Assembly (NCBI GenBank): GCA_903923795.1
Contig: CAIXYX010000140.1
Span: 1-41,305 of the forward strand
DNA: 41,305 nucleotides
DNA from: an uncultured Candidatus Micrarchaeota archaeon
Lineage (GTDB): Archaea; Micrarchaeota; Micrarchaeia; Anstonellales; Anstonellaceae
Direction: 5' to 3'
The notes beneath the pieces were generated by a model, which worked only from the letters and a program-made list of their open reading frames with translations, searched no databases and was not told the DNA's origin. A program made the position numbers and the translations under genes. Below, piece after piece: positions 6,041-29,303 of this stretch; the stretch's first letter is position 1; each line of letters begins with the position of its first letter.

Positions 6041-6883
6041 TTAGTCATACAATACGGTTGTGCCGCCTATGCCGAAGAAGTTCAAGGTTAGCATTACGGC
6101 GAAGAGCAGCAAGAGGACGATGAACGCGCTGCGGATATGCCCGCTCGACACATGCCCCTTCGATAAAGCGATGGAGCCAAAGAATGAGCCGATGGCAGCG
6201 GCGATGCCCGTGCCGAGGAGGAGAGCGACGTTTATCGGTCCGATGAACATGAGATGGCCCAAGAGGCCCAATATGGATGCAAGCAGAGTGCACACGTGCG
6301 AGAGGATGGCGGCGCGCTTTGGAGTCATGCCGGATTCAATGAGAAACGGCACAAGGAATACGCCGCCGCCGATGCCGAGTGTGCCTGAGAGAACACCGGT
6401 TGTGCCGCCCATGGCGGCTCTGCGCATGGCAACACCGGCTGCCTGCCCGCCGGTTTCCTCGAGAAAGCCCGCCTCTCCCTCGGCCAATCTGGGTTTGGGT
6501 TTGCTGATTTTCGACCAGGTTATCATCCGCACGGCGATTGCGAAGAGGGCGAGGGCGAAGAGGCCGATGATGATATGCGGGGGGAGCATCTGCGCGAACC
6601 ACACACCCAGCGGCGCGCCGAGGAAAGCGCCGGCGAAGATGAAGGCGGCCGATTTGTATTCTTTTGCTGTGAGAAGGCCGACGCGGTGGAAGTTGAAAGA
6701 GGAGATGGCGGTTGTGATGACGTTCAGGGACAGGCCCACTAAGATGGCCATATCTATCGGGATGCCGAGCCAGAAGAAGATGGGCACATAGATGGAGGCG
6801 CCGCCCAAGCCAAGGACGGCGAAGATGCCCGAGAGGAAGAGGACGAGGATTGGGGCGATGATTATTGGATCCATGGAAATCAT
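6041..6883 (-). CDS. TauE/SafE (TSUP) family permease
   Basis: Repeated GLGGA..VP and GIGGGVFLVP motifs with about 8 TM helices; ATGA overlap with the gpmA stop. Confidence 0.9.
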   Translation of the reverse strand: MISMDPIIIAPILVLFLSGIFAVLGLGGASIYVPIFFWLGIPIDMAILVGLSLNVITTAISSFNFHRVGLLTAKEYKSAAFIFAGAFLGAPLGVWFAQMLPPHIIIGLFALALFAIAVRMITWSKISKPKPRLAEGEAGFLEETGGQAAGVAMRRAAMGGTTGVLSGTLGIGGGVFLVPFLIESGMTPKRAAILSHVCTLLASILGLLGHLMFIGPINVALLLGTGIAAAIGSFFGSIALSKGHVSSGHIRSAFIVLLLLFAVMLTLNFFGIGGTTVLYD

Positions 6884-7491
6884 TGTTCTAATATTTCCTT
6901 GGCGATGATTTTCATGGACGAGTCGAATTCGTAGACATAGGAGGTGCCAGTAGGGATTTCGAGCGCCATCACCTGCTCGGGCGAGAGTTTATCGAGATAC
7001 ATGACGATGGCACGAAGCGAATTGCCGTGCGCGGCCACGAGCACATTATTGCCGGCTGCGAGATTTTTGGCGATATTGGACTTGTAGAATGGAACCACGC
7101 GCGCTGCGGTGTCGGCGAGGCATTCGCCGTTCGGCGGGCGCACATCATAGCTTCTCCGCCAGAGCTGCACCTGCTCGGGGCCGTATTTGACGCGCAGGTC
7201 ATCCTTGTTCAAGCCCTGCAAATCACCGTAATGCCGCTCGTTTAGGGCCGCGTCTTTCAGCACAGAGATATTTTTCTGGTTAAGATCGGTCAGTATGATG
7301 TCGAGTGTGTCCTGGGCGCGGATGAGAGCAGAGGTGTAGGCCTTATCGAAACGATAGCCGTTGAGGGCGGCGGCGGCCTTGCTCGCCTCCTTCTCCCCTT
7401 GCGGCGAGAGCTTGACATCTATCCAGCCAGTAAACCTGTTTTGGAGGTTCCATTCAGATTGCCCGTGGCGCACAAGCACAAGGTATGCCAT
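6880..7491 (-). CDS. gpmA: 2,3-bisphosphoglycerate-dependent phosphoglycerate mutase
   Basis: LVRHGQSEWN.NRFTGW.D, LNERHYGDLQGLNK, WRRSYDVRPP, AHGNSLRA, IPTG. Start MAYLVL at 7491. Confidence 0.95.
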   Translation of the reverse strand: MAYLVLVRHGQSEWNLQNRFTGWIDVKLSPQGEKEASKAAAALNGYRFDKAYTSALIRAQDTLDIILTDLNQKNISVLKDAALNERHYGDLQGLNKDDLRVKYGPEQVQLWRRSYDVRPPNGECLADTAARVVPFYKSNIAKNLAAGNNVLVAAHGNSLRAIVMYLDKLSPEQVMALEIPTGTSYVYEFDSSMKIIAKEILEQ

Positions 7492-7513
7492 GATGAGAGG
7501 TAGTCGAAGAAGA

Positions 7514-7520
7514 TTTATAA
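7514..7520. promoter_or_regulatory. Putative bidirectional TATA box between gpmA and the 1465-aa gene
   Basis: TTTATAA centred in a 54-bp divergent gap, about 23-26 nt from both ATGs. Confidence 0.6.
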
Positions 7521-7545
7521 CCGGTGTCTTGGCATTGGGAAGCAT

Positions 7546-10500
7546 ATGGCGGATTTGAAGGCACCGAAGAGGATTCTTCAGAGCGACTCACAGAACTCCC
7601 TGCCCGTGACGACGATGGAGGAGAACCCGCAGTTGATTGATCTGCTGCACAACCCCTCCAAAGCATATGACCACTTCACCGAGCTGAAGGAAGCGGTTGC
7701 CAGCAGTACCGCCGTGCATCCGAATTACCTGAAAGTTGTGCCGAGCATGAACAACGATAAAAATGTCAAGTCCGGCGAAGTGAAAAACACGCAAGCAAAG
7801 AAAGAAACCTCATTAAACTGCAATCAGGCCATGCAGAAGATTGACCAGTTCTATTCTCTCTATGCTTCCGAGTTGGACAGTATAGAATATGGCAAGAGCC
7901 TGCAGAATGTTCAGGATACATGGACTTCGGGCACTAATTCGCAGAAAGAGGGTCTTTCGTCCTCCGGCGCGCAGATGGACAATCTGGACCCGTTCAAGAC
8001 ACAAAGCACGCCAACGCAATTGGCGGAATCATTTGACGGATATTCAAAATACTCGAAGGCGAATATCGAGAAGAAGGTGGCGGAATTTACAACAGAGGAT
8101 GAGAAAAAGAATTATGTGCTAAACCTCCTGAGCGAGATGGCGGGAGTCGAGGGCGTGGTCCGCTCGATGCGGGCCGAGAAATATATGGCCGGCGCCTATG
8201 ATTTTGGCAAAGATTCCAAAGAGGAGGTGAGGCGCAACCTCGCAGCATGGCTGATTGGCACCCACGCGACGGCAGAATCGATGGCAGGGGAATTGGAGAA
8301 GAGCAAGAACGCGAAAAACCCGAACAGCGTTTATCATGATGCGTGGCTTCTGCTCTACGCCAAAAGCGACAGGGCGTCAGTTGCTTGGGGTGCCAAGAGC
8401 TTGTATGATGCATTAGGCGACAATTGGGAAAATCTTGGCAGAGATGAGCGGAGCATTGACAAAGTCATAGATATGTGCAAAGACATACAGAAAACGCAGG
8501 GCCGAGTCATGGAAGATTTGGCGCATCAGGAAAATGTGGAGATAAACGGATGGACTTTGGCATTTGTAAGTGAGCATGGGCAGGCCATTGTGGATGTGGG
8601 TGTGGCGGCGACCTCGGCGCTCCTCCTCCAGCCCGAGTTGAGCATGTATTATTTCGGATTCCGCGGCGCAGGCATGGCGGTGGAGGGGGCGGTTGAGGGC
8701 GACTGGGGAAAAGCCTTCACAGGCACGATGATGGCGATTCCGCTGGTGGGCAGGGCAGGCAGGGTGCTGGCACCGTCGAGCAAGATGATGAAATGGGGCA
8801 CGAGCGTGGCCGGTGCAACTTCGGCTACCGCATTCACCGGCATGATGGCTTATGACAGCACCAAACTGCTTTACGAAGCCAGTCACACATATTTCACGCT
8901 GTCGGATTATGTTGGAATAGCGCAGAATGCCGCATTTGTGGCAGGAATACAAATGACTGAGAAGATGCTGACGGGCACGAAGAAAGTTATGGCGCAAAGA
9001 AAGAGGGCGGCGGCAAAGCAGGCAGATAAAAATGACAAGACGGTGAAAACAAAGAAGCCTGTGCAGGCATATGCGGAAGCCAAAGACGCACCAGAGACCA
9101 AGTCGATTTATTCTGCAAAAGATTACATGGCTGACCCGTATTCGGGAGCGCGTTTTCGAAAGCTCTATTCGGCTGTCGAGAATGTGGTACCCGGCATTAT
9201 TGAGAAAGACCCCGGCACCGCTCTTTATCTGAACATCATCGCCAAGAGTTTCAGTGACAGAGGAGTGAATGCGCTGCTTAGCGAGATGAACAAAATCAAA
9301 TGGCTGGATGGGAAGAGGGGCAAACTGAAAATGGCATCGCCTGAGGAGCAGAAAGACGGGCTTTGGAAGCTGCTGCTCGATTCCGAACATCTGGAAGATA
9401 TACAGAAAAGAGGCGGCGAAAATCCGTATCCGGTGGATAAACTGTATTCATTCCCGGCCAACATGCTGGACCCGATTATTTGGTTTGGGAAGAAAATCGG
9501 GGCTGCGGCGAAGAAAACCGCGAAGAAGATGAAAAAGAAAGCGAAGCAGACTGCGCCGGTCGCGGAACAACCAACGCAGGAGAAGAGAGTGGAGATCTCC
9601 AAGTTACCTTACGCGAATGAGGAAACCGCCGGCATACCCAAAGCCCTACAGCCCGACGAGGTCAAAAAACCCTTCATCGGCCTAAAGGAGACGAAACCGC
9701 TCCTGCGCCAGGCCATGCTGGACAACCCGAACAAAGACGTCAAGGACATGGTCAACGAGCACTGGGCAGACACCGAAGGACTCCTCAATATGATGTGGAA
9801 TGTGTGGGACAGGAAGATGGTGGATGACTATGCCGATTATATCCGCAAGTGCACCACCGCGGGAGAGGTGGCTGAACACGGCTGGGCGCTCATCGAGCAG
9901 TTCGAGAACCGCTCACGGCGGACCATGATCAGGACGAAGACAAAGACCGGGGTGGCGGATGGCGGCGAGAATGCCCTCGCCCAATTAAGCGACAAGCGCA
10001 AGGTGCTCTTCCATCACTTAAAGAACGATATAGACCATCCATTGGTCATCTGCGAACTTGCCCGCGGAAGGCTTGAAAAGAATGGATTTTCAAAAGAGGC
10101 GCAGGCTATCAAGGAATACGAGGACAAATTGCGGCTCATCTCGCGTGGAGAAGGCAAGGCCGGCGGCCAGATGGGCGCGACAGATTATTACAAACAGATG
10201 ATCTCGAGCGATGCGACGAATGGCACGCTTGCCGCAAACGGCCAGATGGTAATCGATTTATCGGTTGAAGCCGAGAAAGTTTTTGGCGAAGCTTACCAGG
10301 TGCTCAAGAAGATGAATGAGAATGGGCCGACCAAAGGCCTGCTGAGCGGCAGCCTCGAGGATGTGGAGCCCCGCAAGATAATGGACGAACACGGAGCCGA
10401 GACGAAAATCCCCGGATGGTTCGAGAGGATTTCCAAAAACCGCCAGGAAGTCATCAACCCCAGCGAGATGGACATAAAGACCGAGGATATCGGTTCGCTC

Positions 10501-11943
10501 ATCAAAAGCAGATTCGCCGATGTGACTGCGCCTGCCACGAAGATATATGCAGAGGTCGATGGAGATTTGCTCATGCAGGCATTTGATAATGTGCTCGGCA
10601 ACGCGGATAAATACAAGGCGGCGGGCACGAAAGTCAAGGTGGATGTGCTCGAGCGGGATGGCCTGATTCACATACAGGTATCGAACAGGGTGGAGGCGGG
10701 CGGGGGCATAACAAATGAGATGTGGAACCGAGCGTTGCGGGGGGAGTCCAACGACAATGCGACCCCGAACTCGACAGGGGTGGGCATACTGGGGAGCATC
10801 GCAGTCATAGATGGATTCGACGGGCGCATAAATCTCGTTGACGGCGGCAGGGAGAGCGGAACCACCACAATTGAAATCACGGTGCCAAGCAACGAGGAGG
10901 CGGGAGGGAATCTGATGAATTCTGGCCCGACTTCCGGGACCTCGCAGAGCCTGTCCATGCAAAACGCCCTCTCTGATGTCGGGTACACATCCGCAGAAAG
11001 CCAAAGACTGGCGCAGGCTAATATGCAGAGATATCTGGATGACTTCTATCCAGGTGTGAAGATAGAGGACGTGCAGTTCCTGGACTTCGGCGGAGTCAAC
11101 GACGTATATGCCCTGAGATACAAAGACGAGACTCTCGGGCTCATCAAGGGGAGCAGCCTGGTGGCAGATAAATTCATGCTGGATTTGTATCGCAGGATGG
11201 GGTTCGACCAGGGATACTCGATAATGCGCTATGGGAATATCGATATCATGCAGTTTGCGGAAGGCACAAGCCTCTCCGCATGCATACGCGGCGGGCATAT
11301 CCGCTCGGTGCGCACCGGCGATGATGGCAAGCTGATTAGGGAGGATGTCCCGCTTGACGAGAGGATCATGTCCGAGCTGGCATATGAGTACGGGAGGCAG
11401 ATGGCGGTGCACGAAGCATTCTCGCTTCATGACCCCCATGGAGACAATTTTCGGGCAGTCATGATAGACGGCAAAGCCAAAATCATCCGTATAGATATGG
11501 AAGGTGCTACGATCGGAGGGATGGTGTCTGAGGATTATGTCGACGCATTCTCGGACACGCATGCGTGGACCAGCCCTGACGGCCAGTATTACGCCCAGCT
11601 AAAAGCCGGCTTTGAGGCGCAGGCCCAGCTCATCTACGATAATAGGGCCGAGCTGATTCAAAGGCTCGGAGAGGTTGAGTCGGAACTTGGTTCTGATAAG
11701 ACGCTTCCGCATCAGATAGAAGGAATCTCCCAGGCCACAATCGGCACCAGCTTCCCGACCACGATTGCGCGCCTCGCGCGGACACCGCAGATGGCATGGG
11801 AAAGTTTCTTAAAAGAGGGGAAGACGGGGGAGAGCAATGAATACGTTCAACCCGACTTCGACGAGGAGGCGTATCGCTATTATCAGACAATGCATCCGGA
11901 TTGGACCCACGAGCAGATAATGAGGGAGATGGAAGAGGAATGA
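7546..11943 (+). CDS. 1465-aa multidomain protein: helical N-terminus, Gly/Ala-rich membrane region, HisKA/HATPase_c-like core, C-terminal PI3K/HipA-like kinase domain
   Basis: Membrane region ~8550-8960 includes AIPLVGRAGR. H-box-like FHHLKNDIDHPL (~10008); N-box LLMQAFDNVLGNADKY (~10567); G-boxes GGGI and STGVGI; TTIEITVP. Then GGVNDVY, LIKG, DPHGDN (11431) and IDME (11491). Confidence 0.75.
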   Translation: MADLKAPKRILQSDSQNSLPVTTMEENPQLIDLLHNPSKAYDHFTELKEAVASSTAVHPNYLKVVPSMNNDKNVKSGEVKNTQAKKETSLNCNQAMQKIDQFYSLYASELDSIEYGKSLQNVQDTWTSGTNSQKEGLSSSGAQMDNLDPFKTQSTPTQLAESFDGYSKYSKANIEKKVAEFTTEDEKKNYVLNLLSEMAGVEGVVRSMRAEKYMAGAYDFGKDSKEEVRRNLAAWLIGTHATAESMAGELEKSKNAKNPNSVYHDAWLLLYAKSDRASVAWGAKSLYDALGDNWENLGRDERSIDKVIDMCKDIQKTQGRVMEDLAHQENVEINGWTLAFVSEHGQAIVDVGVAATSALLLQPELSMYYFGFRGAGMAVEGAVEGDWGKAFTGTMMAIPLVGRAGRVLAPSSKMMKWGTSVAGATSATAFTGMMAYDSTKLLYEASHTYFTLSDYVGIAQNAAFVAGIQMTEKMLTGTKKVMAQRKRAAAKQADKNDKTVKTKKPVQAYAEAKDAPETKSIYSAKDYMADPYSGARFRKLYSAVENVVPGIIEKDPGTALYLNIIAKSFSDRGVNALLSEMNKIKWLDGKRGKLKMASPEEQKDGLWKLLLDSEHLEDIQKRGGENPYPVDKLYSFPANMLDPIIWFGKKIGAAAKKTAKKMKKKAKQTAPVAEQPTQEKRVEISKLPYANEETAGIPKALQPDEVKKPFIGLKETKPLLRQAMLDNPNKDVKDMVNEHWADTEGLLNMMWNVWDRKMVDDYADYIRKCTTAGEVAEHGWALIEQFENRSRRTMIRTKTKTGVADGGENALAQLSDKRKVLFHHLKNDIDHPLVICELARGRLEKNGFSKEAQAIKEYEDKLRLISRGEGKAGGQMGATDYYKQMISSDATNGTLAANGQMVIDLSVEAEKVFGEAYQVLKKMNENGPTKGLLSGSLEDVEPRKIMDEHGAETKIPGWFERISKNRQEVINPSEMDIKTEDIGSLIKSRFADVTAPATKIYAEVDGDLLMQAFDNVLGNADKYKAAGTKVKVDVLERDGLIHIQVSNRVEAGGGITNEMWNRALRGESNDNATPNSTGVGILGSIAVIDGFDGRINLVDGGRESGTTTIEITVPSNEEAGGNLMNSGPTSGTSQSLSMQNALSDVGYTSAESQRLAQANMQRYLDDFYPGVKIEDVQFLDFGGVNDVYALRYKDETLGLIKGSSLVADKFMLDLYRRMGFDQGYSIMRYGNIDIMQFAEGTSLSACIRGGHIRSVRTGDDGKLIREDVPLDERIMSELAYEYGRQMAVHEAFSLHDPHGDNFRAVMIDGKAKIIRIDMEGATIGGMVSEDYVDAFSDTHAWTSPDGQYYAQLKAGFEAQAQLIYDNRAELIQRLGEVESELGSDKTLPHQIEGISQATIGTSFPTTIARLARTPQMAWESFLKEGKTGESNEYVQPDFDEEAYRYYQTMHPDWTHEQIMREMEEE

Positions 11944-12035: not shown

Positions 12036-12692
12036 ATGAAGAAAAACACAGTCAGCGTCGATCGGCTGCGCAGGTTCGGCGACGAGACGCAAGGCATAGG
12101 CTCGAGGCTGAGCGTATTGGCCAAAATAGGTCCGGCGAAGGAACTGATTGACAGGAGAGTTGACGGGAAGAGCCAGAGTATCGGAAGCGTGTGGGTCGAG
12201 GCAGGTGGCTGGATGAATCCGGACACCGTGAAAGAGGCACCGCAGATAGATGCCTCGCCAATGCTGAACACGCTGATGATGCTGGCCAGAAAGCACGGCA
12301 TAAGAGATGTTGGCTTTGGCAATACGGAGCGCATCATGCTCGGGGCATCCTCGCTCGAATTGCCGAAAAACGCGTTCGCTGGATTTGTTGTGTGGAACGC
12401 CACCAGACCCGAGAGCTTCCATGACGGGCTCGACGCTTTCCTCTCATATATCACGGACGCGACTCCGCAGACTTGGGCGCGGCGCCATGGCGCGAAGAAT
12501 TCGGCGCTGGCGATGTTCGCGGACGGCGTGGCGAATGATGGCGTGGCATTCTTCTCATCGGTGCCGGTGATGAGCGATGAGGCGCTGGCAGGGAAGTTCA
12601 AGACATTCTCGCTCCATCGAAAAGACATCGAGAATTTCGCGGCGGATGAGAAGACAGAGATTTGCGCGGCGGTGGCGAGAAATCAGGCGTGA
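12036..12692 (+). CDS. Hypothetical protein
   Basis: ATG preceded by AGGTG and TATTAAATA; globular composition; no recognised motif. Confidence 0.7.
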   Translation: MKKNTVSVDRLRRFGDETQGIGSRLSVLAKIGPAKELIDRRVDGKSQSIGSVWVEAGGWMNPDTVKEAPQIDASPMLNTLMMLARKHGIRDVGFGNTERIMLGASSLELPKNAFAGFVVWNATRPESFHDGLDAFLSYITDATPQTWARRHGAKNSALAMFADGVANDGVAFFSSVPVMSDEALAGKFKTFSLHRKDIENFAADEKTEICAAVARNQA

Positions 12693-16943: not shown

Positions 16944-19900
16944 ATGTTCACCCCGCGTCGTGGTTTGGCAGGCCGGCAGGAGAAGCCGTTCGAAGGAAAA
17001 GAAATGGGTCGGTCGTCGTCCGGGACCCGCGGGGCGCTTGCCATGCGCGCGCAGACAACTGTTGAATATATCGTGCTTTTCGCCGCCATCGCCGTTTTGG
17101 TGCTCGTTCTTGCAAACCTTTTGGGAGTGCTGCCCAAGAACTCCGGAATGCAGATAGAACAGTCGAAGGCATATTGGAGCAGTCAGGCTGGACCCATCAA
17201 AGTGAAGGACTGGTCGATGGCTACAATAAAACAGGACTCGCCGTTGGCTGCGGATGCCAACTTATCACTTGTGCTCTCTAATCCCACACGAGACACCATC
17301 ATTATCAAGGCCATCACGCTTGCGCCGGGCAATTTCAGCTCGGTTATGGATGCGTCAGGGAATTGGATGGGCACAAGCACATCTCTTTCCATTGTCCTGC
17401 TGCCGGGTGAGGAGAGGACTATTGTTGCGCTGCACCATGGAGTGGGGGCTGGCGCGTATATCCCGGCCGAATACTATTCGCAGATATTGACGCTCACATA
17501 CTCTACCGGACTTGGCACTTCGCGCGAGACGGGCGCATTGCCGCTTGTTGGCAGCAACAGGTATATTGTCGGGAGCGTTGGCGCCTGCCCGCCGCCGCTG
17601 ACCAGCTGTGGTGGCGGAGCGTGCGCAGAGGCTGGCCACTGTTGTGGAAGCGGTGCTTGCAATTCCCAGCAGACATGCTGCGGAGGGAGCACATGCTGCA
17701 ACAGCGGATCTGAGAGCTGCCAGAGCGGTTCGTGCGTGGCTGTTTCCGGCTGCAATGCGCCGAATTTCACATGCAATGGCATATGCTGCGATGCGGCTTC
17801 GTATAATCTGTGCCAGGGAGACACGCAGTGCGCATATTGTGACAGAGCAAAGACATGCGGCGAATATTGCTGCGGGGATTCGGAAACATGCGTGAATTCT
17901 GGTGCCGGAAGCTATGCTGGAGCATGCCAGATTGTTACACCTGCATGCACGGCCCCGAACACCACGTGCGGCACATGGTGCTGCGCACAGGGACAGACAT
18001 GCGTGAACAGCAGTGCGGCCACGTATGACGGAGCATGCCAGGCTGCGGCGACCTGCGTATCCCCGAACATCACATGCGGGGCTTGGTGCTGCGCGGACGG
18101 GCTAGGATGCATGAATGACACTGCCAGCACATATGAGGGGGCTTGCCAGGAAGCGATGTTCGAATGCCCTGAGCAGTACGACATTTGCGGGATATGGTGC
18201 TGCGAGCATGGAGACACATGCGATCCGGACGGATTGACATATGATCAGGCATGCCGAGTGGATAGAAACTGCACTTCCCCAAACTCGGTGAAATGCGGAA
18301 CCAACTGCTGCCTGGACAATCAGACATGCAATGAGACGACTCGGGTGTGCGTGGACACTAAATCTTGCTCAGACCCATCAGGGTGGAATTCGTATAATCA
18401 GACATGTGTAAATGACTGCGATGCCACGACGCAGTACTGTGATGGCACTAGTTGCCTGTGCGCCAATCGGAGTCTGATAGCCTGCAGCTCGAATTCGTCG
18501 GATTATGATGCGTCTACGATGACATGCATCGATGACTGTGATCATTCGACCCAATACTGCAATGGAGCTTGCCAGTGCGCCCCGAGCACGAATGTTCCAT
18601 GCAATTCCGGCATCGGAGTGTATGACTCGAGCAGGACGTGCTTGGACAACTGCGACGGCAATACTTATTGTGATGGCAATTGCTTGTGCCAGCCGCGCCC
18701 GGTAGTATACTGCAGCAACAGCCCGGATTTCAACGCGGGCACGAGGATATGCGCAGACGACTGCAACCGCAGCCTGTATTCTGGCTGCGCCGGAGATTGC
18801 ACGTGCATACCCCTTGACTTGACCAGATATTGCAACGCGCACGGAGTTTTCGATGGCGGCAGTCTGCAATGCCTGAGCAATTGCAGTGATTATGCAAATG
18901 CTTTCGGTTTTGATCCAAACACTCTGACGTGTATCGACAACTGCAATTCGGCGACCCAGTACTGCGACCCCAACACCTGCCTGTGCGACATCAAACAACC
19001 GGTGCAATGCGCGAATTTCGCCCGGCCATTTGACTTCAACAATCCCGGCACATACTGGAATAATATGACGATGAGCTGCCAGGATAATTGCGCAGTACTT
19101 GGTTCTGATGTGCAATGCGACGGCTCGAACTGCACCTGCTGCTATGCAGAAGGTCATCAGTGCGATATCACACCGAACTCGCCGCCGCCCGGCTGCTGTG
19201 GTGGACTGGTCTGCAATTCCTCAGGGATGTGCGCACCTGCGCCGCCAGTGATACTATGCTCGAACAGCTCGACTCCCTTGCTACCGGTTCCGGGAGATCC
19301 GGAATATTATGATAGATACTGCCAGGACGATGTCGCGCAGAAAGTTGGAACAGGATATGCATGCAACTTGAACGGCTGCAATTACTATCCGGTTTGCGGA
19401 TACAACACTACATACTGCGCAGAGGGAGCGTGCTGCTATGCAAACCAGAGCTGTGTGAATGGGGCGTGCGTGAACTCGTGCGCGGCTGGCACCACGTATT
19501 GCAATGATACGAACGGAAATTACGTTGGTTGCTGCGCCGCAGGCTCGGTGTGCAATTCGCTCAAGGGAATGTGCGTGGTGAATTCGACATGCTCGGGCGC
19601 GAATCTGTCATTGTGCGGCAATGCGTGCTGCAACCTCTCGAGTCAGGCATGCAGCGGCGGCGCCTGCATAAACTGCGCCGCCGGGATGGGCTCGTGCGGA
19701 AGCACATGCTGCGCTGCATCTGATTGCCGCACAGGCGGAGTTTGCTGCCCGAGCAGCAGATGGGTCAGTGCCACGAACACTTGCTGCGAGATAGGGAATG
19801 TGAGCTCGAATGGCCACTGCTGCCCGGCGAACCAGACATATGCCAACGGCGGATGCTGCCCGGCAGGGCAGATTTATTCAAATGGAGCATGCTGCGCGAT

Positions 19901-21137
19901 CAACACGTGGAATGGCACGATGTGCTGCCCGAGCGGGCAGTATGCGGTGAATGGCACCTGCCAATGCAGCGGCGGAAACCTCACATGTGGCTCGACTTGC
20001 TGCAATCCGACCACGCAGTCGTGCAATGAAGATTCGGGCACTTGCACAACATGTGGAGGCGGCCAGACAATGTGCGGGGGCTCATGCTGCGCTGCAGGGA
20101 ATTGCCGCAATGGAAATGTATGCTGCCCAGCCAATAGATGGAATGCCAGCACGAACACATGCTGCCCGGCCGAGAGATGGAACAGCAACACGAACACATG
20201 CTGCCCGGTCGGGCAGGTGAATGGGAATGGAGTGTGCTGCCAGGCGGGAAGATGGAACGCGGGTACGGGAGTATGCTGCCCAGACAGCAAATGGAGTGGA
20301 AGTCAGTGCTGCCCGGAGGGCAAGACCCCGTATTTGGGCACTTGTTTGTGCAATGGAAGAATAACCTGCAACTACGAATGCTGCAATTCGACAAGCCAGG
20401 GAGATGCGACAGATCAGGTATGCAATATGACGGGGCATATGAATTACAGCACTGGCACCGATTACTACACTTATGCCTGCGTGACCTGCCCGGCAGGAAC
20501 AGATAAATGCGGAACTAGCTGCTGCGCGAGCGGAAGATGCTTTGGCGGAGGAGCGGCCTGCTGCCCAGTTAACACGACGTATTTCAGCTATGGCGCGACA
20601 TGCTGCCCGAATGATCGAGTGGTTAATGGCGCATGCTGCCCGAAAAATAAAGTGATTGCGGGCGGAGTCTGCTGCGATGCGGCGTATGCACACGGAGACG
20701 TGTGCTGCCTCCCCAACCCTTACAACGAAAGCCAATATGCGATGTATTATGGGTATACGAACGGAAACCGCTGGACTGGCTCGACTTGCTGTCCATATGG
20801 ACAGGCATATGTGAATGGAAGCTGCTGTGCGCTGGACCATATTGCCCTCACAAACTCGAATTTGGGAGGATACGCATACTGCTGTGATTCAGGCAGCTGG
20901 GGCACCCCGGGCAGATACTTCGGTGATTCGATATGCTGCCCAGTGGGGACAACGTTTTCATGGACGGGCGGAAACCTGGATAGAGCAGACTTGAACATCT
21001 CAAACGTATGCTGCCCGAACGCACGCTGGGTGCATGATCCACACGGATATGATATCTGCTGCCCGGTCGGAAAAACGATCACGAACGGAGTTTGCGAGTG
21101 CTGGCTGAATAGATATGGAGAATGCGTGACGTCATGA
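16944..21137 (+). CDS. Giant Cys-rich surface protein with class III (prepilin-type) signal peptide
   Basis: RA|QTTVEYIVLFAAIAVLVLVL cleavage motif; about 180-aa pilin-like domain; Cys-rich repeats from ~17586 to the end; TTTTTAAA at 16915-16922. Confidence 0.85.
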   Translation: MFTPRRGLAGRQEKPFEGKEMGRSSSGTRGALAMRAQTTVEYIVLFAAIAVLVLVLANLLGVLPKNSGMQIEQSKAYWSSQAGPIKVKDWSMATIKQDSPLAADANLSLVLSNPTRDTIIIKAITLAPGNFSSVMDASGNWMGTSTSLSIVLLPGEERTIVALHHGVGAGAYIPAEYYSQILTLTYSTGLGTSRETGALPLVGSNRYIVGSVGACPPPLTSCGGGACAEAGHCCGSGACNSQQTCCGGSTCCNSGSESCQSGSCVAVSGCNAPNFTCNGICCDAASYNLCQGDTQCAYCDRAKTCGEYCCGDSETCVNSGAGSYAGACQIVTPACTAPNTTCGTWCCAQGQTCVNSSAATYDGACQAAATCVSPNITCGAWCCADGLGCMNDTASTYEGACQEAMFECPEQYDICGIWCCEHGDTCDPDGLTYDQACRVDRNCTSPNSVKCGTNCCLDNQTCNETTRVCVDTKSCSDPSGWNSYNQTCVNDCDATTQYCDGTSCLCANRSLIACSSNSSDYDASTMTCIDDCDHSTQYCNGACQCAPSTNVPCNSGIGVYDSSRTCLDNCDGNTYCDGNCLCQPRPVVYCSNSPDFNAGTRICADDCNRSLYSGCAGDCTCIPLDLTRYCNAHGVFDGGSLQCLSNCSDYANAFGFDPNTLTCIDNCNSATQYCDPNTCLCDIKQPVQCANFARPFDFNNPGTYWNNMTMSCQDNCAVLGSDVQCDGSNCTCCYAEGHQCDITPNSPPPGCCGGLVCNSSGMCAPAPPVILCSNSSTPLLPVPGDPEYYDRYCQDDVAQKVGTGYACNLNGCNYYPVCGYNTTYCAEGACCYANQSCVNGACVNSCAAGTTYCNDTNGNYVGCCAAGSVCNSLKGMCVVNSTCSGANLSLCGNACCNLSSQACSGGACINCAAGMGSCGSTCCAASDCRTGGVCCPSSRWVSATNTCCEIGNVSSNGHCCPANQTYANGGCCPAGQIYSNGACCAINTWNGTMCCPSGQYAVNGTCQCSGGNLTCGSTCCNPTTQSCNEDSGTCTTCGGGQTMCGGSCCAAGNCRNGNVCCPANRWNASTNTCCPAERWNSNTNTCCPVGQVNGNGVCCQAGRWNAGTGVCCPDSKWSGSQCCPEGKTPYLGTCLCNGRITCNYECCNSTSQGDATDQVCNMTGHMNYSTGTDYYTYACVTCPAGTDKCGTSCCASGRCFGGGAACCPVNTTYFSYGATCCPNDRVVNGACCPKNKVIAGGVCCDAAYAHGDVCCLPNPYNESQYAMYYGYTNGNRWTGSTCCPYGQAYVNGSCCALDHIALTNSNLGGYAYCCDSGSWGTPGRYFGDSICCPVGTTFSWTGGNLDRADLNISNVCCPNARWVHDPHGYDICCPVGKTITNGVCECWLNRYGECVTS
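20121..20207 (+). repeat. 39-bp in-frame tandem repeat encoding CCPAxRWNxxTNT
   Basis: tgctgcccagccaatagatggaatgccagcacgaacaca followed by tgctgcccggccgagagatggaacagcaacacgaacaca, then tgctgcccg. Confidence 0.85.
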
Positions 21138-29123: not shown

Positions 29124-29126
29124 CGG

Positions 29127-29197
29127 GCCAGGTTGGCAGAGAGGCTATGCATCCGCCTGCAGAGCGGATTAGGGGGGTTCGATTCCCTCACCTGGCT
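29127..29197 (+). tRNA. tRNA-Cys(GCA)
   Basis: GCCAGGT/ACCTGGC acceptor, TCCGC CT GCA GA GCGGA anticodon arm, GGGGG TTCGATT CCCTC T arm, U73; T-tract follows. Confidence 0.96.
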
Positions 29198-29303
29198 ACC
29201 GCCTTTTTTATGAATACCTGCTTTTTTTATAGATACATAAATTACAGTCGTGCCAAAAAACGCAAGTTGCTAAAAAACAAATTACACATAAAACGTCTCG
29301 AAT

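Follow-up and report, generated by a model that had tools for sequence, protein, structure and literature searches.

The window analyzed here, a 41,305-nucleotide stretch of DNA from an uncultured Candidatus Micrarchaeota archaeon (NCBI GenBank assembly GCA_903923795.1, contig CAIXYX010000140.1), encodes a mosaic protein of 1465 residues (P0001) whose C-terminal domain, here called Ckin, probably represents a new and active kinase family within the structural class of the phosphatidylinositol 3- and 4-kinases (PI3K, PI4K) and PI3K-related kinases (PIKK). Kinases of this type are nearly always accompanied by a small gene encoded immediately downstream, and it is this pair of kinase and partner gene that forms the constant unit of the system; the N-terminal module (N-module), the histidine kinase-like (HK) module, and the other inserts found in the giant proteins of related genomes are accessories. 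Since the association of kinase and partner is so regular, a membrane or the host cell may be what the two act on as a pair. An original prediction, made from the letters of the window alone, had described P0001 as an effector-like fusion of a histidine kinase-like core to a PI3K/HipA-like kinase, and several of its claims are revisited below.

The C-terminal kinase domain and its partner genes

The structure of the C-terminal 316 residues of P0001 was predicted with AlphaFold2 (AF2) from an alignment of 13 Ckin rows, comprising database matches and sequences from the loci of relatives, and the resulting model has a pLDDT of 81.4 and a pTM of 0.77. Foldseek searches of the PDB with this model returned Vps34 and PI3Kalpha as top matches (E-value 3e-6, TM-score 0.47-0.50), and the Foldseek viral library yielded a phage protein labeled a PI3/4-kinase catalytic domain (E-value 3.3e-5). 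A VIA-align structure comparison over 48,161 chains assigned Z-scores of 14.8 to ATM and Vps34, 14.2 to PI4KIIIalpha and PI4KIIIbeta, 13.8 to PI4KIIalpha and the LanM protein LicM2, 12.9 to actin-fragmin kinase and Bud32, and about 10 to aminoglycoside kinases, RIO, WaaP, and CtkA. The PI3K half of the PI3K/HipA-like label is therefore well founded. Its HipA half is a poorer description, since CtkA (3akj), which we take to be HipA-like, reaches a Z-score of 9.9 versus 13-14.8 for the PI3K, PI4K, and PIKK structures, and no HipA chain figures among the best 50 matches.

The residues expected of a kinase are in place. The motifs on which the original prediction had relied are found at aa 1181-1188 (FGGVNDVY), aa 1199-1202 (LIKG), aa 1296-1301 (DPHGDN), and aa 1315-1319 (IDME, with its preceding arginine), and the order of the catalytic residues agrees with the order of strands and helices in the AF2 model. 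K1201, D1296, N1301, and the R1315-I-D1317 segment do not vary across the 13 rows; 10 rows have H1298, and 12 have an acidic residue at the position of D1209. The outcome that the original prediction had named as refuting it, a C-terminal segment without a kinase fold, thus did not occur: the predicted fold is PI3K/PI4K-like, and the catalytic residues are intact. These fold matches, together with invariant catalytic residues in the order of the model, place Ckin in the PI3K/PI4K/PIKK structural class as a new family that is probably active and that falls outside PF00454 by sequence. No Pfam family, PF00454 included, matches aa 1150-1465 at an E-value of 10 or below, nor does any NCBIfam entry, and a Ckin family profile searched against the PDB finds no kinase at an E-value of 1 or below.

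The family is rare and restricted to the Micrarchaeota lineage. Searched exhaustively with phmmer, 1.84 billion representative proteins gave seven Ckin matches at E-values of 0.001 or below (two at 1e-10 or below), all of them at the C-terminus of proteins of 479-1590 residues, and the two matches with a named source both come from Candidatus Micrarchaeota metagenome-assembled genomes (MAGs). Within the phylum, 13 of 301 genomes match the Ckin profile. An index search with the whole of P0001 matched only the protein itself, a search among proteins of similar size found it and one relative, the profile of alignment A1 had no match among proteins of 2784-5000 residues, and the related-locus search gave no relative of P0010. 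In the literature on DPANN and Micrarchaeota (PI3K-like proteins, kinases, effectors, and giant proteins), supplements aside, we found no paper on the Ckin family. The main text of PMC12892359, its supplements likewise set apart, makes no mention of "two-component", "giant", "effector", or "phosphatidylinositol".

Directly behind the giant gene lies orf220, homologues of which were identified in 4 of the 41 genomes sampled from the family. Every one of these homologues (family A) directly adjoins a giant gene carrying an N-module and Ckin, two of them codirectional and two convergent with the giant gene. Other Ckin genes are followed by members of family B (alignment A7), which are proteins of 185-254 residues encoded in the direction of the giant gene and often overlapping its stop codon. 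The family B profile matched three members that had not been used in training (L017, E-value 2.5e-47; L059, E-value 1e-5; L073, E-value 2.2e-20), the last of which lies in a named Micrarchaeota MAG, and one genome (G023) carries both families. We defined strong loci as those with Ckin at an E-value of 1e-24 or below and with downstream DNA present, leaving out two loci that end too early. At all 13 assessable strong loci a partner of family A or B overlaps the end of the giant gene or lies within ~100 nt of it. A partner was found at one of four assessable weaker Ckin loci, and at none of the four assessable N-module genes devoid of Ckin.

The two partner families have no profile match in Pfam or the PDB, PADLOC recognizes neither of them nor P0001, and the ESM Atlas holds no usable match for orf220. 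Judging from their sequences, families A and B are possibly homologous to each other. A complex prediction for Ckin and orf220 was returned with a score of 0.00 and without a verdict.

Mosaic architecture and fast divergence

We mapped the giant open reading frames (ORFs) of relatives using hidden Markov models (HMMs) of the three modules (N, HK, and Ckin). The complete N-HK-Ckin arrangement is present in three genomes (that of P0001, G005, and G018), N-Ckin in four (G023, G324, G014, and G267), and N-HK without Ckin in three (G006, G008, and G001), and N-modules are also joined to other tails (G006:C51 and G003). Ckin, in turn, sits on unrelated N-termini in at least six cases (G020, G010, G022, G228, G230, and G082), and weaker Ckin matches occur in ORFs of up to 5183 residues (G261, G276, G271, G069, and G028). 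The modules are shuffled among relatives, and P0001 is a mosaic of N-module, HK module, and Ckin. Homologues sharing the N-terminus and bearing swapped C-termini, for which the original prediction had called, do exist among these relatives. Within P0001 itself, Pfam and NCBIfam find no domain in aa 1-800, and the ATPase domain of the HK module is the sole Pfam domain of the whole protein; the middle region, unique to P0001 (Table 1), likewise has no Pfam match.

Further elements were seen in the giant proteins of relatives. The 5183-residue ORF (L060, G261:C15) holds its weak Ckin-profile match internally (E-value 3e-12). In the remote homologues P0008 (aa 575-733) and P0009 (aa 1016-1222), the hydrophobic region is separated from the kinase by a transglutaminase-like core and TPR, and a HEAYH (HExxH-like) motif is found in P0005 and in the G324 protein. 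An extra common module of ~240-320 residues without a Pfam family is present in the giants of five relatives (L009:4223-9283, at aa ~1035-1350, L069, L066, L015, and L068) and is missing from P0001.

The giant protein diverges far faster than its surroundings. In G005, a genome of the same genus, gene order is conserved as gpmA, giant gene, orf220, ABC permease, ABC ATPase, trxB, and Cys-rich protein, and the giant protein at the equivalent position is 24.7% identical to P0001 over 962 aligned columns (16-24% per module). The orf220 products are 22-24% identical between the two genomes, compared to 71% for the ABC permease, 85% for the ABC ATPase, and 75% for the thioredoxin reductase. This synteny comparison refers to G005 alone, the other ABC permease orthologue of the genus (G003) being located at the start of its contig. 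At a broader scale, three genera share the partner gene and the order of genes.

The ATPase core of histidine kinase type postulated by the original prediction is confirmed by a HATPase_c match (PF02518) at aa 1005-1115, with an E-value of 2.2e-7 and 31.8 bits versus a cut-off of 26.4; its closest solved relative is the ATP-binding domain of WalK/YycG. A profile of nine related HK modules matches 48 solved histidine kinase sequences, the best at 5.8e-21, and N1015, N1019, and the glycine of the STG-x-G motif are invariant across the nine aligned modules. The N box sequence NADKY (aa 1019-1023) and the altered G1 box VSNRVEAGGGI (aa 1045-1055) had both been read correctly. In the latter, N-R-V-E-A-G-G-G takes the place of the D-x-G-x-G of the G1 box, and the adenine-binding aspartate is lost; the closest relatives have N-D-(V/T) at this position and more distant ones D-D-G-x-G. 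Because this aspartate is replaced, ATP binding by the P0001 copy appears doubtful.

Upstream of the ATPase domain, each of seven modules from giant proteins contains one single H[DNH]xKN motif, located 186-243 residues before the N box. In P0001 the corresponding residue, His823, precedes the N box by 192 residues, with a long helical spacer in between; the usual distance is ~110-120 residues, as in HK853. Profile alignments to solved kinases leave the motif off their H box, and Pfam detects no HisKA or other DHp domain in P0001 at an E-value of 10 or below. Two stand-alone histidine kinases of relatives (L005:385-1872, + strand, 496 residues, and L006:85-1812, + strand, 576 residues) share an HD(L/I)KN motif, placed ~70 residues from the N-terminus; with 326-409 residues between it and the N box, their spacer is unusually long. 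As the original prediction had noted, no response regulator is encoded in the window. Nor was a receiver found on the giant-gene contig of any of the five relatives with HK-bearing giants, and two of these relatives (84% and 87% complete) have no receiver detected in the whole genome. The combination that the original prediction had named as refuting an effector role, an invariant architecture together with a cognate response regulator in homologues, is therefore not seen either.

The N-module profile has matches in 13 of 401 genomes of the phylum and in 10 of 30 in its own family, always near the N-terminus of ORFs that range in size from 424 to 2491 residues. P0004 and P0005 also carry it, and both end in Ckin. 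Three residues (G374, G381, and M396) are nearly invariant in the alignment, and a PDB profile search gave no solved relative. The GDWGKA (aa 385-390) and AIPLVGRAGR (aa 397-406) sequences cited by the original prediction are present, as are the two Lys-rich linkers (Table 1). The connection it had drawn from the IPxVG motif to the PT-TG domain of polymorphic toxins does not stand: PF14449 matches none of 14 N-modules at an E-value of 1 or below, and not P0001 even at 10, and the IPxVG-like P..GR motif is confined to three close sequences. Searches of the ESM Atlas with the N-module returned sub-threshold matches only (0.85-0.87), one of them a cluster with PT-TG (score 0.85). On the evidence of PF14449, we rejected homology of the N-module to PT-TG.

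Sequence integrity and genomic surroundings

The frame encoding P0001 is open over 4.4 kb of the + strand, and a second contig on record encodes an identical protein of 1465 residues. The junctions between N-module and linker, linker and HK module, and HK module and kinase are each bridged by contig pieces of 100% identity, free of joints or indels, from four pond-metagenome runs belonging to two studies, and no variants of the giant gene were seen across the four runs. An assembly chimera is thereby ruled out, and we conclude that the fusion is genuine. Table 1 lists the features of the locus.

Table 1. Features of the giant gene, its upstream region, and its partner gene in the window (aa numbering refers to P0001)
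Feature	Position (nt)	Strand	Basis or remark
TTTATA, TATA-box-like element	7514..7519	+	~29 nt before giant-gene ATG, read directly
Gene for 1465-aa mosaic protein (P0001)	7546..11943	+	Reading frame open throughout
N-module (aa 60-520), predicted all-helical	7723..9105	+	Relatives' alignments A4 and A5; without Pfam family
Gly/Ala/Ser-rich weakly hydrophobic helices (aa ~337-470), with GDWGKA and AIPLVGRAGR	8554..8955	+	Kyte-Doolittle
Lys-rich linker 1 (aa 478-505)	8977..9060	+	Composition
Middle region (aa ~531-817), unique to P0001	9136..9996	+	No BLAST/HMM match among giant proteins of relatives
Lys-rich linker 2 (aa 649-668), inside middle region	9490-9549	+	Composition
His-kinase-like module (aa 818-1122)	9997..10911	+	HATPase_c match, family profile
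H-box-like motif FHHLKND, His823	10012-10014	+	Conserved H[DNH]xKN motif
HATPase_c; N box N1015/N1019, G2 box STGVGILG	10558-10890	+	Pfam PF02518
Ckin, predicted PI3K/PI4K-fold kinase domain (aa 1150-1465)	10993..11940	+	AF2 model, fold searches
Lys1201	11146-11148	+	ATP-anchoring beta-3 Lys, invariant
DPHGDN	11431-11448	+	Catalytic loop
RIDME	11488-11502	+	Metal-binding motif
orf220, family A (P0012 from its Met)	12036..12692	+	Starts 93 nt past giant-gene stop

The position of the TTTATA element suggests a leaderless archaeal transcript of the giant gene, its spacing being that of archaeal leaderless promoters. An ORF for a gpmA-type histidine phosphatase (6880-7545, - strand) abuts the ATG of the giant gene with zero spacer. 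Its conserved core begins at residue 22, so its true start is probably an internal methionine at ~nt 7491, and a short promoter region therefore remains that is compatible with a leaderless start.

The source genome comprises 1.24 Mb in 146 contigs and is 88% complete. The neighbors of the giant gene in the window are housekeeping genes (serS, a 2-hydroxyacid dehydrogenase, an aminotransferase, TauE, gpmA, an ABC transporter, and trxB), and an origin in a mobile element or virus was discarded on this account. The sole tRNA of the window is tRNA-Cys(GCA), at 29126-29200 (+ strand). A further large gene (16944-21137, + strand) encodes an extremely Cys-rich protein of 1397 residues without a Pfam family (P0002), whose N-terminus looks like the class III (pilin-type) signal peptides of archaea; its orthologue at the same position in G005 is 40% identical.

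Interpretation and comparison with known systems

We favor, at evenly balanced confidence, the reading that kinase and partner form a conflict or host-interaction module, because a kinase at the very C-terminus, trailed by a small gene, is combined with module shuffling, a patchy distribution (13 of 301 genomes), extreme divergence, and a symbiotic lineage. With regard to membrane tethering, substrate, export to a host, and the role of the partner, we infer a scheme of the following kind. Its functional core would be the C-terminal PI3K/PI4K/PIKK-class kinase, with its catalytic residues intact, cooperating with the small protein encoded downstream. The N-module helices, rich in small residues, of borderline hydrophobicity for membrane segments and possibly membrane-associated, would together with the Lys-rich linkers behind them most likely hold the enzyme at a membrane surface, and the HK module, with its conserved histidine and a Bergerat ATP fold that has lost the G1 aspartate, would add or regulate a second phosphotransfer or be regulatory only. 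The kinase "warhead" would then act where symbiont and host meet, phosphorylating either a protein or the head group of a membrane lipid, and the partner may be an inhibitor (immunity protein), an adaptor, or a chaperone of the kinase. A more pointed, host-directed version, which we regard as unlikely, has Ckin passed as an effector warhead into or onto a host archaeon through cell-cell contact or a cytoplasmic bridge, where its target would be a protein of the host or a membrane lipid that bears inositol or a sugar, and the partner holding the kinase inactive within the producing cell.

Several observations count against a conflict or host-interaction role. The original prediction was right that P0001 lacks a signal peptide, the earliest Kyte-Doolittle segment above 1.0 beginning at aa 337; hydropathy and Pfam searches of P0001 reveal no recognizable secretion or trafficking domain either, no export route is evident, and we know of none for such a protein. 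The membrane insertion it had proposed is not borne out: in a 19-residue Kyte-Doolittle window the N-module helices peak at 1.34 in P0001, under the usual threshold of 1.6, those of relatives reach 1.2-1.76, with most under the threshold, and the AF2 model of the N-module is all-helical with a low-confidence pLDDT of 51.7. The giant gene is single-copy in the source genome, and this, together with its conserved housekeeping surroundings, fits an ordinary, vertically inherited cellular function equally well. Furthermore, the architecture is not freely polymorphic, since N-HK-Ckin recurs in two genera, and the source genome holds three stand-alone receiver domains (Response_reg matches), all on other contigs, as potential partners of the HK module. 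Between the two partner families, homology is weak (hhalign, 99 collinear columns, P-value 6.5e-4, probability 27.6%), and a common fold cannot separate a lipid from a protein substrate for Ckin.

Alternatively, P0001 may be a cell-autonomous signaling hub, an explanation that we consider possible if rather doubtful. The protein would remain within the micrarchaeon, attached to the inner side of the cell's own membrane, the HK module would phosphorylate a stand-alone receiver, the PI3K-fold kinase would modify a lipid or protein of its own cell, and orf220 would act as a regulatory subunit comparable to those of eukaryotic PI3K. The missing export signal, the receivers elsewhere in the genome, and the single-copy position between gpmA and an ABC transporter, conserved in two species, all agree with such a hub, as do the occurrence of the same type of HK as stand-alone proteins of 496 and 576 residues in relatives and the recurrence of N-HK-Ckin in three genomes of two genera. 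A hub is harder to reconcile with 25% identity in the giant protein versus 71-85% in flanking genes, with shuffled modules and a patchy distribution (13 of 301 genomes for Ckin and 13 of 401 for the N-module), with the receiver-free giant contigs of five relatives, two of which yielded no receiver at all, and with the loss of the G1 aspartate from the ATP site of P0001.

The match to LicM2 raises a different question, that of whether Ckin is a LanM-like kinase with a dedicated protein substrate. It would then behave as the dehydratase domain of class II lanthipeptide synthetases (LanM) does, a domain that is itself lipid-kinase-like, and phosphorylate Ser/Thr residues of a peptide or of the protein encoded by the partner gene, which would in that case be a substrate instead of a regulator. 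LicM2 (6st5; Z-score 13.8, root-mean-square deviation 3.7, 225 aligned residues, 15% identity) and CylM (5dzt; Z-score 12.9) show the lowest deviation among the best matches, and a small gene is indeed tightly linked downstream. This explanation nevertheless seems very unlikely to us, given that PI3K, PI4K, and PIKK structures score equally or higher, that Pfam finds no LanC-type cyclase or other lanthipeptide domain in P0001 or its relatives, and that the partner is a protein of ~220 residues rather than a short, leader-bearing precursor rich in Cys, Ser, and Thr. Scarcely credible, finally, is a decaying, non-functional fusion whose kinase modules no longer work. The replaced G1 aspartate, the very fast divergence, and a middle region devoid of relatives could be taken as signs of decay, but they are countered by a frame that stays open over 4.4 kb and shows no variants in four runs, by Ckin catalytic residues that are intact and invariant across 13 relatives, and by a partner gene and gene order conserved across three genera.

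DPANN archaea, and Micrarchaeota among them, depend on host cells, and the molecules they use on these hosts are almost unknown. Against this background, the locus provides a concrete two-gene module composed of an undescribed PI3K/PI4K-class kinase family and a dedicated partner, and we believe that the family merits a name whichever class its substrate belongs to. A lipid substrate would bring phosphoinositide-type chemistry into the interactions between archaeal cells; a protein substrate would make Ckin a new family of atypical protein kinases. Should the host-directed version prove true, no earlier inter-archaeal effector family would be kinase-based, and no lipid kinase-type enzyme would have had a role in archaeal symbiosis before. 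The folds themselves are of known kinds. What is new is the fusion of a kinase to a histidine kinase, the N-terminal family, the families of partner genes, and the divergence at a fixed locus, and the pairing of Ckin with a histidine kinase core is undescribed as far as the literature searched shows.

Among known systems, the best structural match to Ckin is with PI3K/PI4K/PIKK enzymes (PF00454; Vps34 2x6f, PI3Kalpha 4ykn, PI4KIIIbeta 8q6f, PI4KIIalpha 4pla, and ATM 8oxm), in which the catalytic loop has the form DRHxxN. Ckin shares with them the bilobal fold and, in the same order, the beta-3 lysine, a D-x-H-x-x-N loop (DPHGDN), and an (R)ID-x-E/G motif. It differs from them in being 10-15% identical to the solved structures, with no match at the sequence level, in spanning ~280-316 residues without the helical (PIK), C2, and FAT accessory domains, and in terminating archaeal mosaic proteins that have a dedicated small partner gene. 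The HK module, for its part, resembles HisKA-class sensor kinases (WalK/YycG 3sl2, HK853 2c2a, and CpxA 4biu) in its N box, its G2 box, and an H-box-like H-D/H-x-K-N motif upstream. Unlike them, P0001 lacks a Pfam HisKA/DHp domain, the G1 aspartate, and an adjacent response regulator, has a longer distance from histidine to N box (192 residues), and carries the module embedded in a larger mosaic protein.

Phosphoinositide kinases that act as bacterial effectors include LepB, MavQ, and LegA5 of Legionella and OpiA of Francisella. Rickettsia Risk1 is described as another (PMC7298712). The likeness to these effectors, drawn by description, lies in the possession of a PI3K/PI4K-type kinase by symbiotic or pathogenic prokaryotes, which in the bacterial cases is used on the membranes of another cell. 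The bacterial effectors, however, rely on known secretion systems and meet eukaryotic hosts with phosphoinositide signaling, whereas the presumed host is here an archaeon and no secretion system is evident.

Polymorphic toxin and effector-immunity systems, reportedly described by Zhang, Aravind and colleagues in 2012, offer a parallel in organization, with a constant N-module, variable middle and C-terminal modules, a catalytic domain at the extreme C-terminus accompanied by a small co-varying gene, and fast divergence. In contrast to such toxins, P0001 has no PT-TG, LXG, RHS, or signal-peptide trafficking part detectable with Pfam, there are no orphan-cassette arrays, the giant gene is single-copy in a housekeeping neighborhood, and the partner is convergent in two of the four family A loci. 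In SPEARE proteins, the domains are of protease, adhesion, and nuclease type. These proteins of Nanohaloarchaeota are presented as large proteins of DPANN archaea with a proposed action on the host (PMC6642349). P0001 can be likened to them, by description, as a large, lineage-specific, multi-domain protein of an ultra-small symbiotic archaeon, differing from them in that its domains are kinases.

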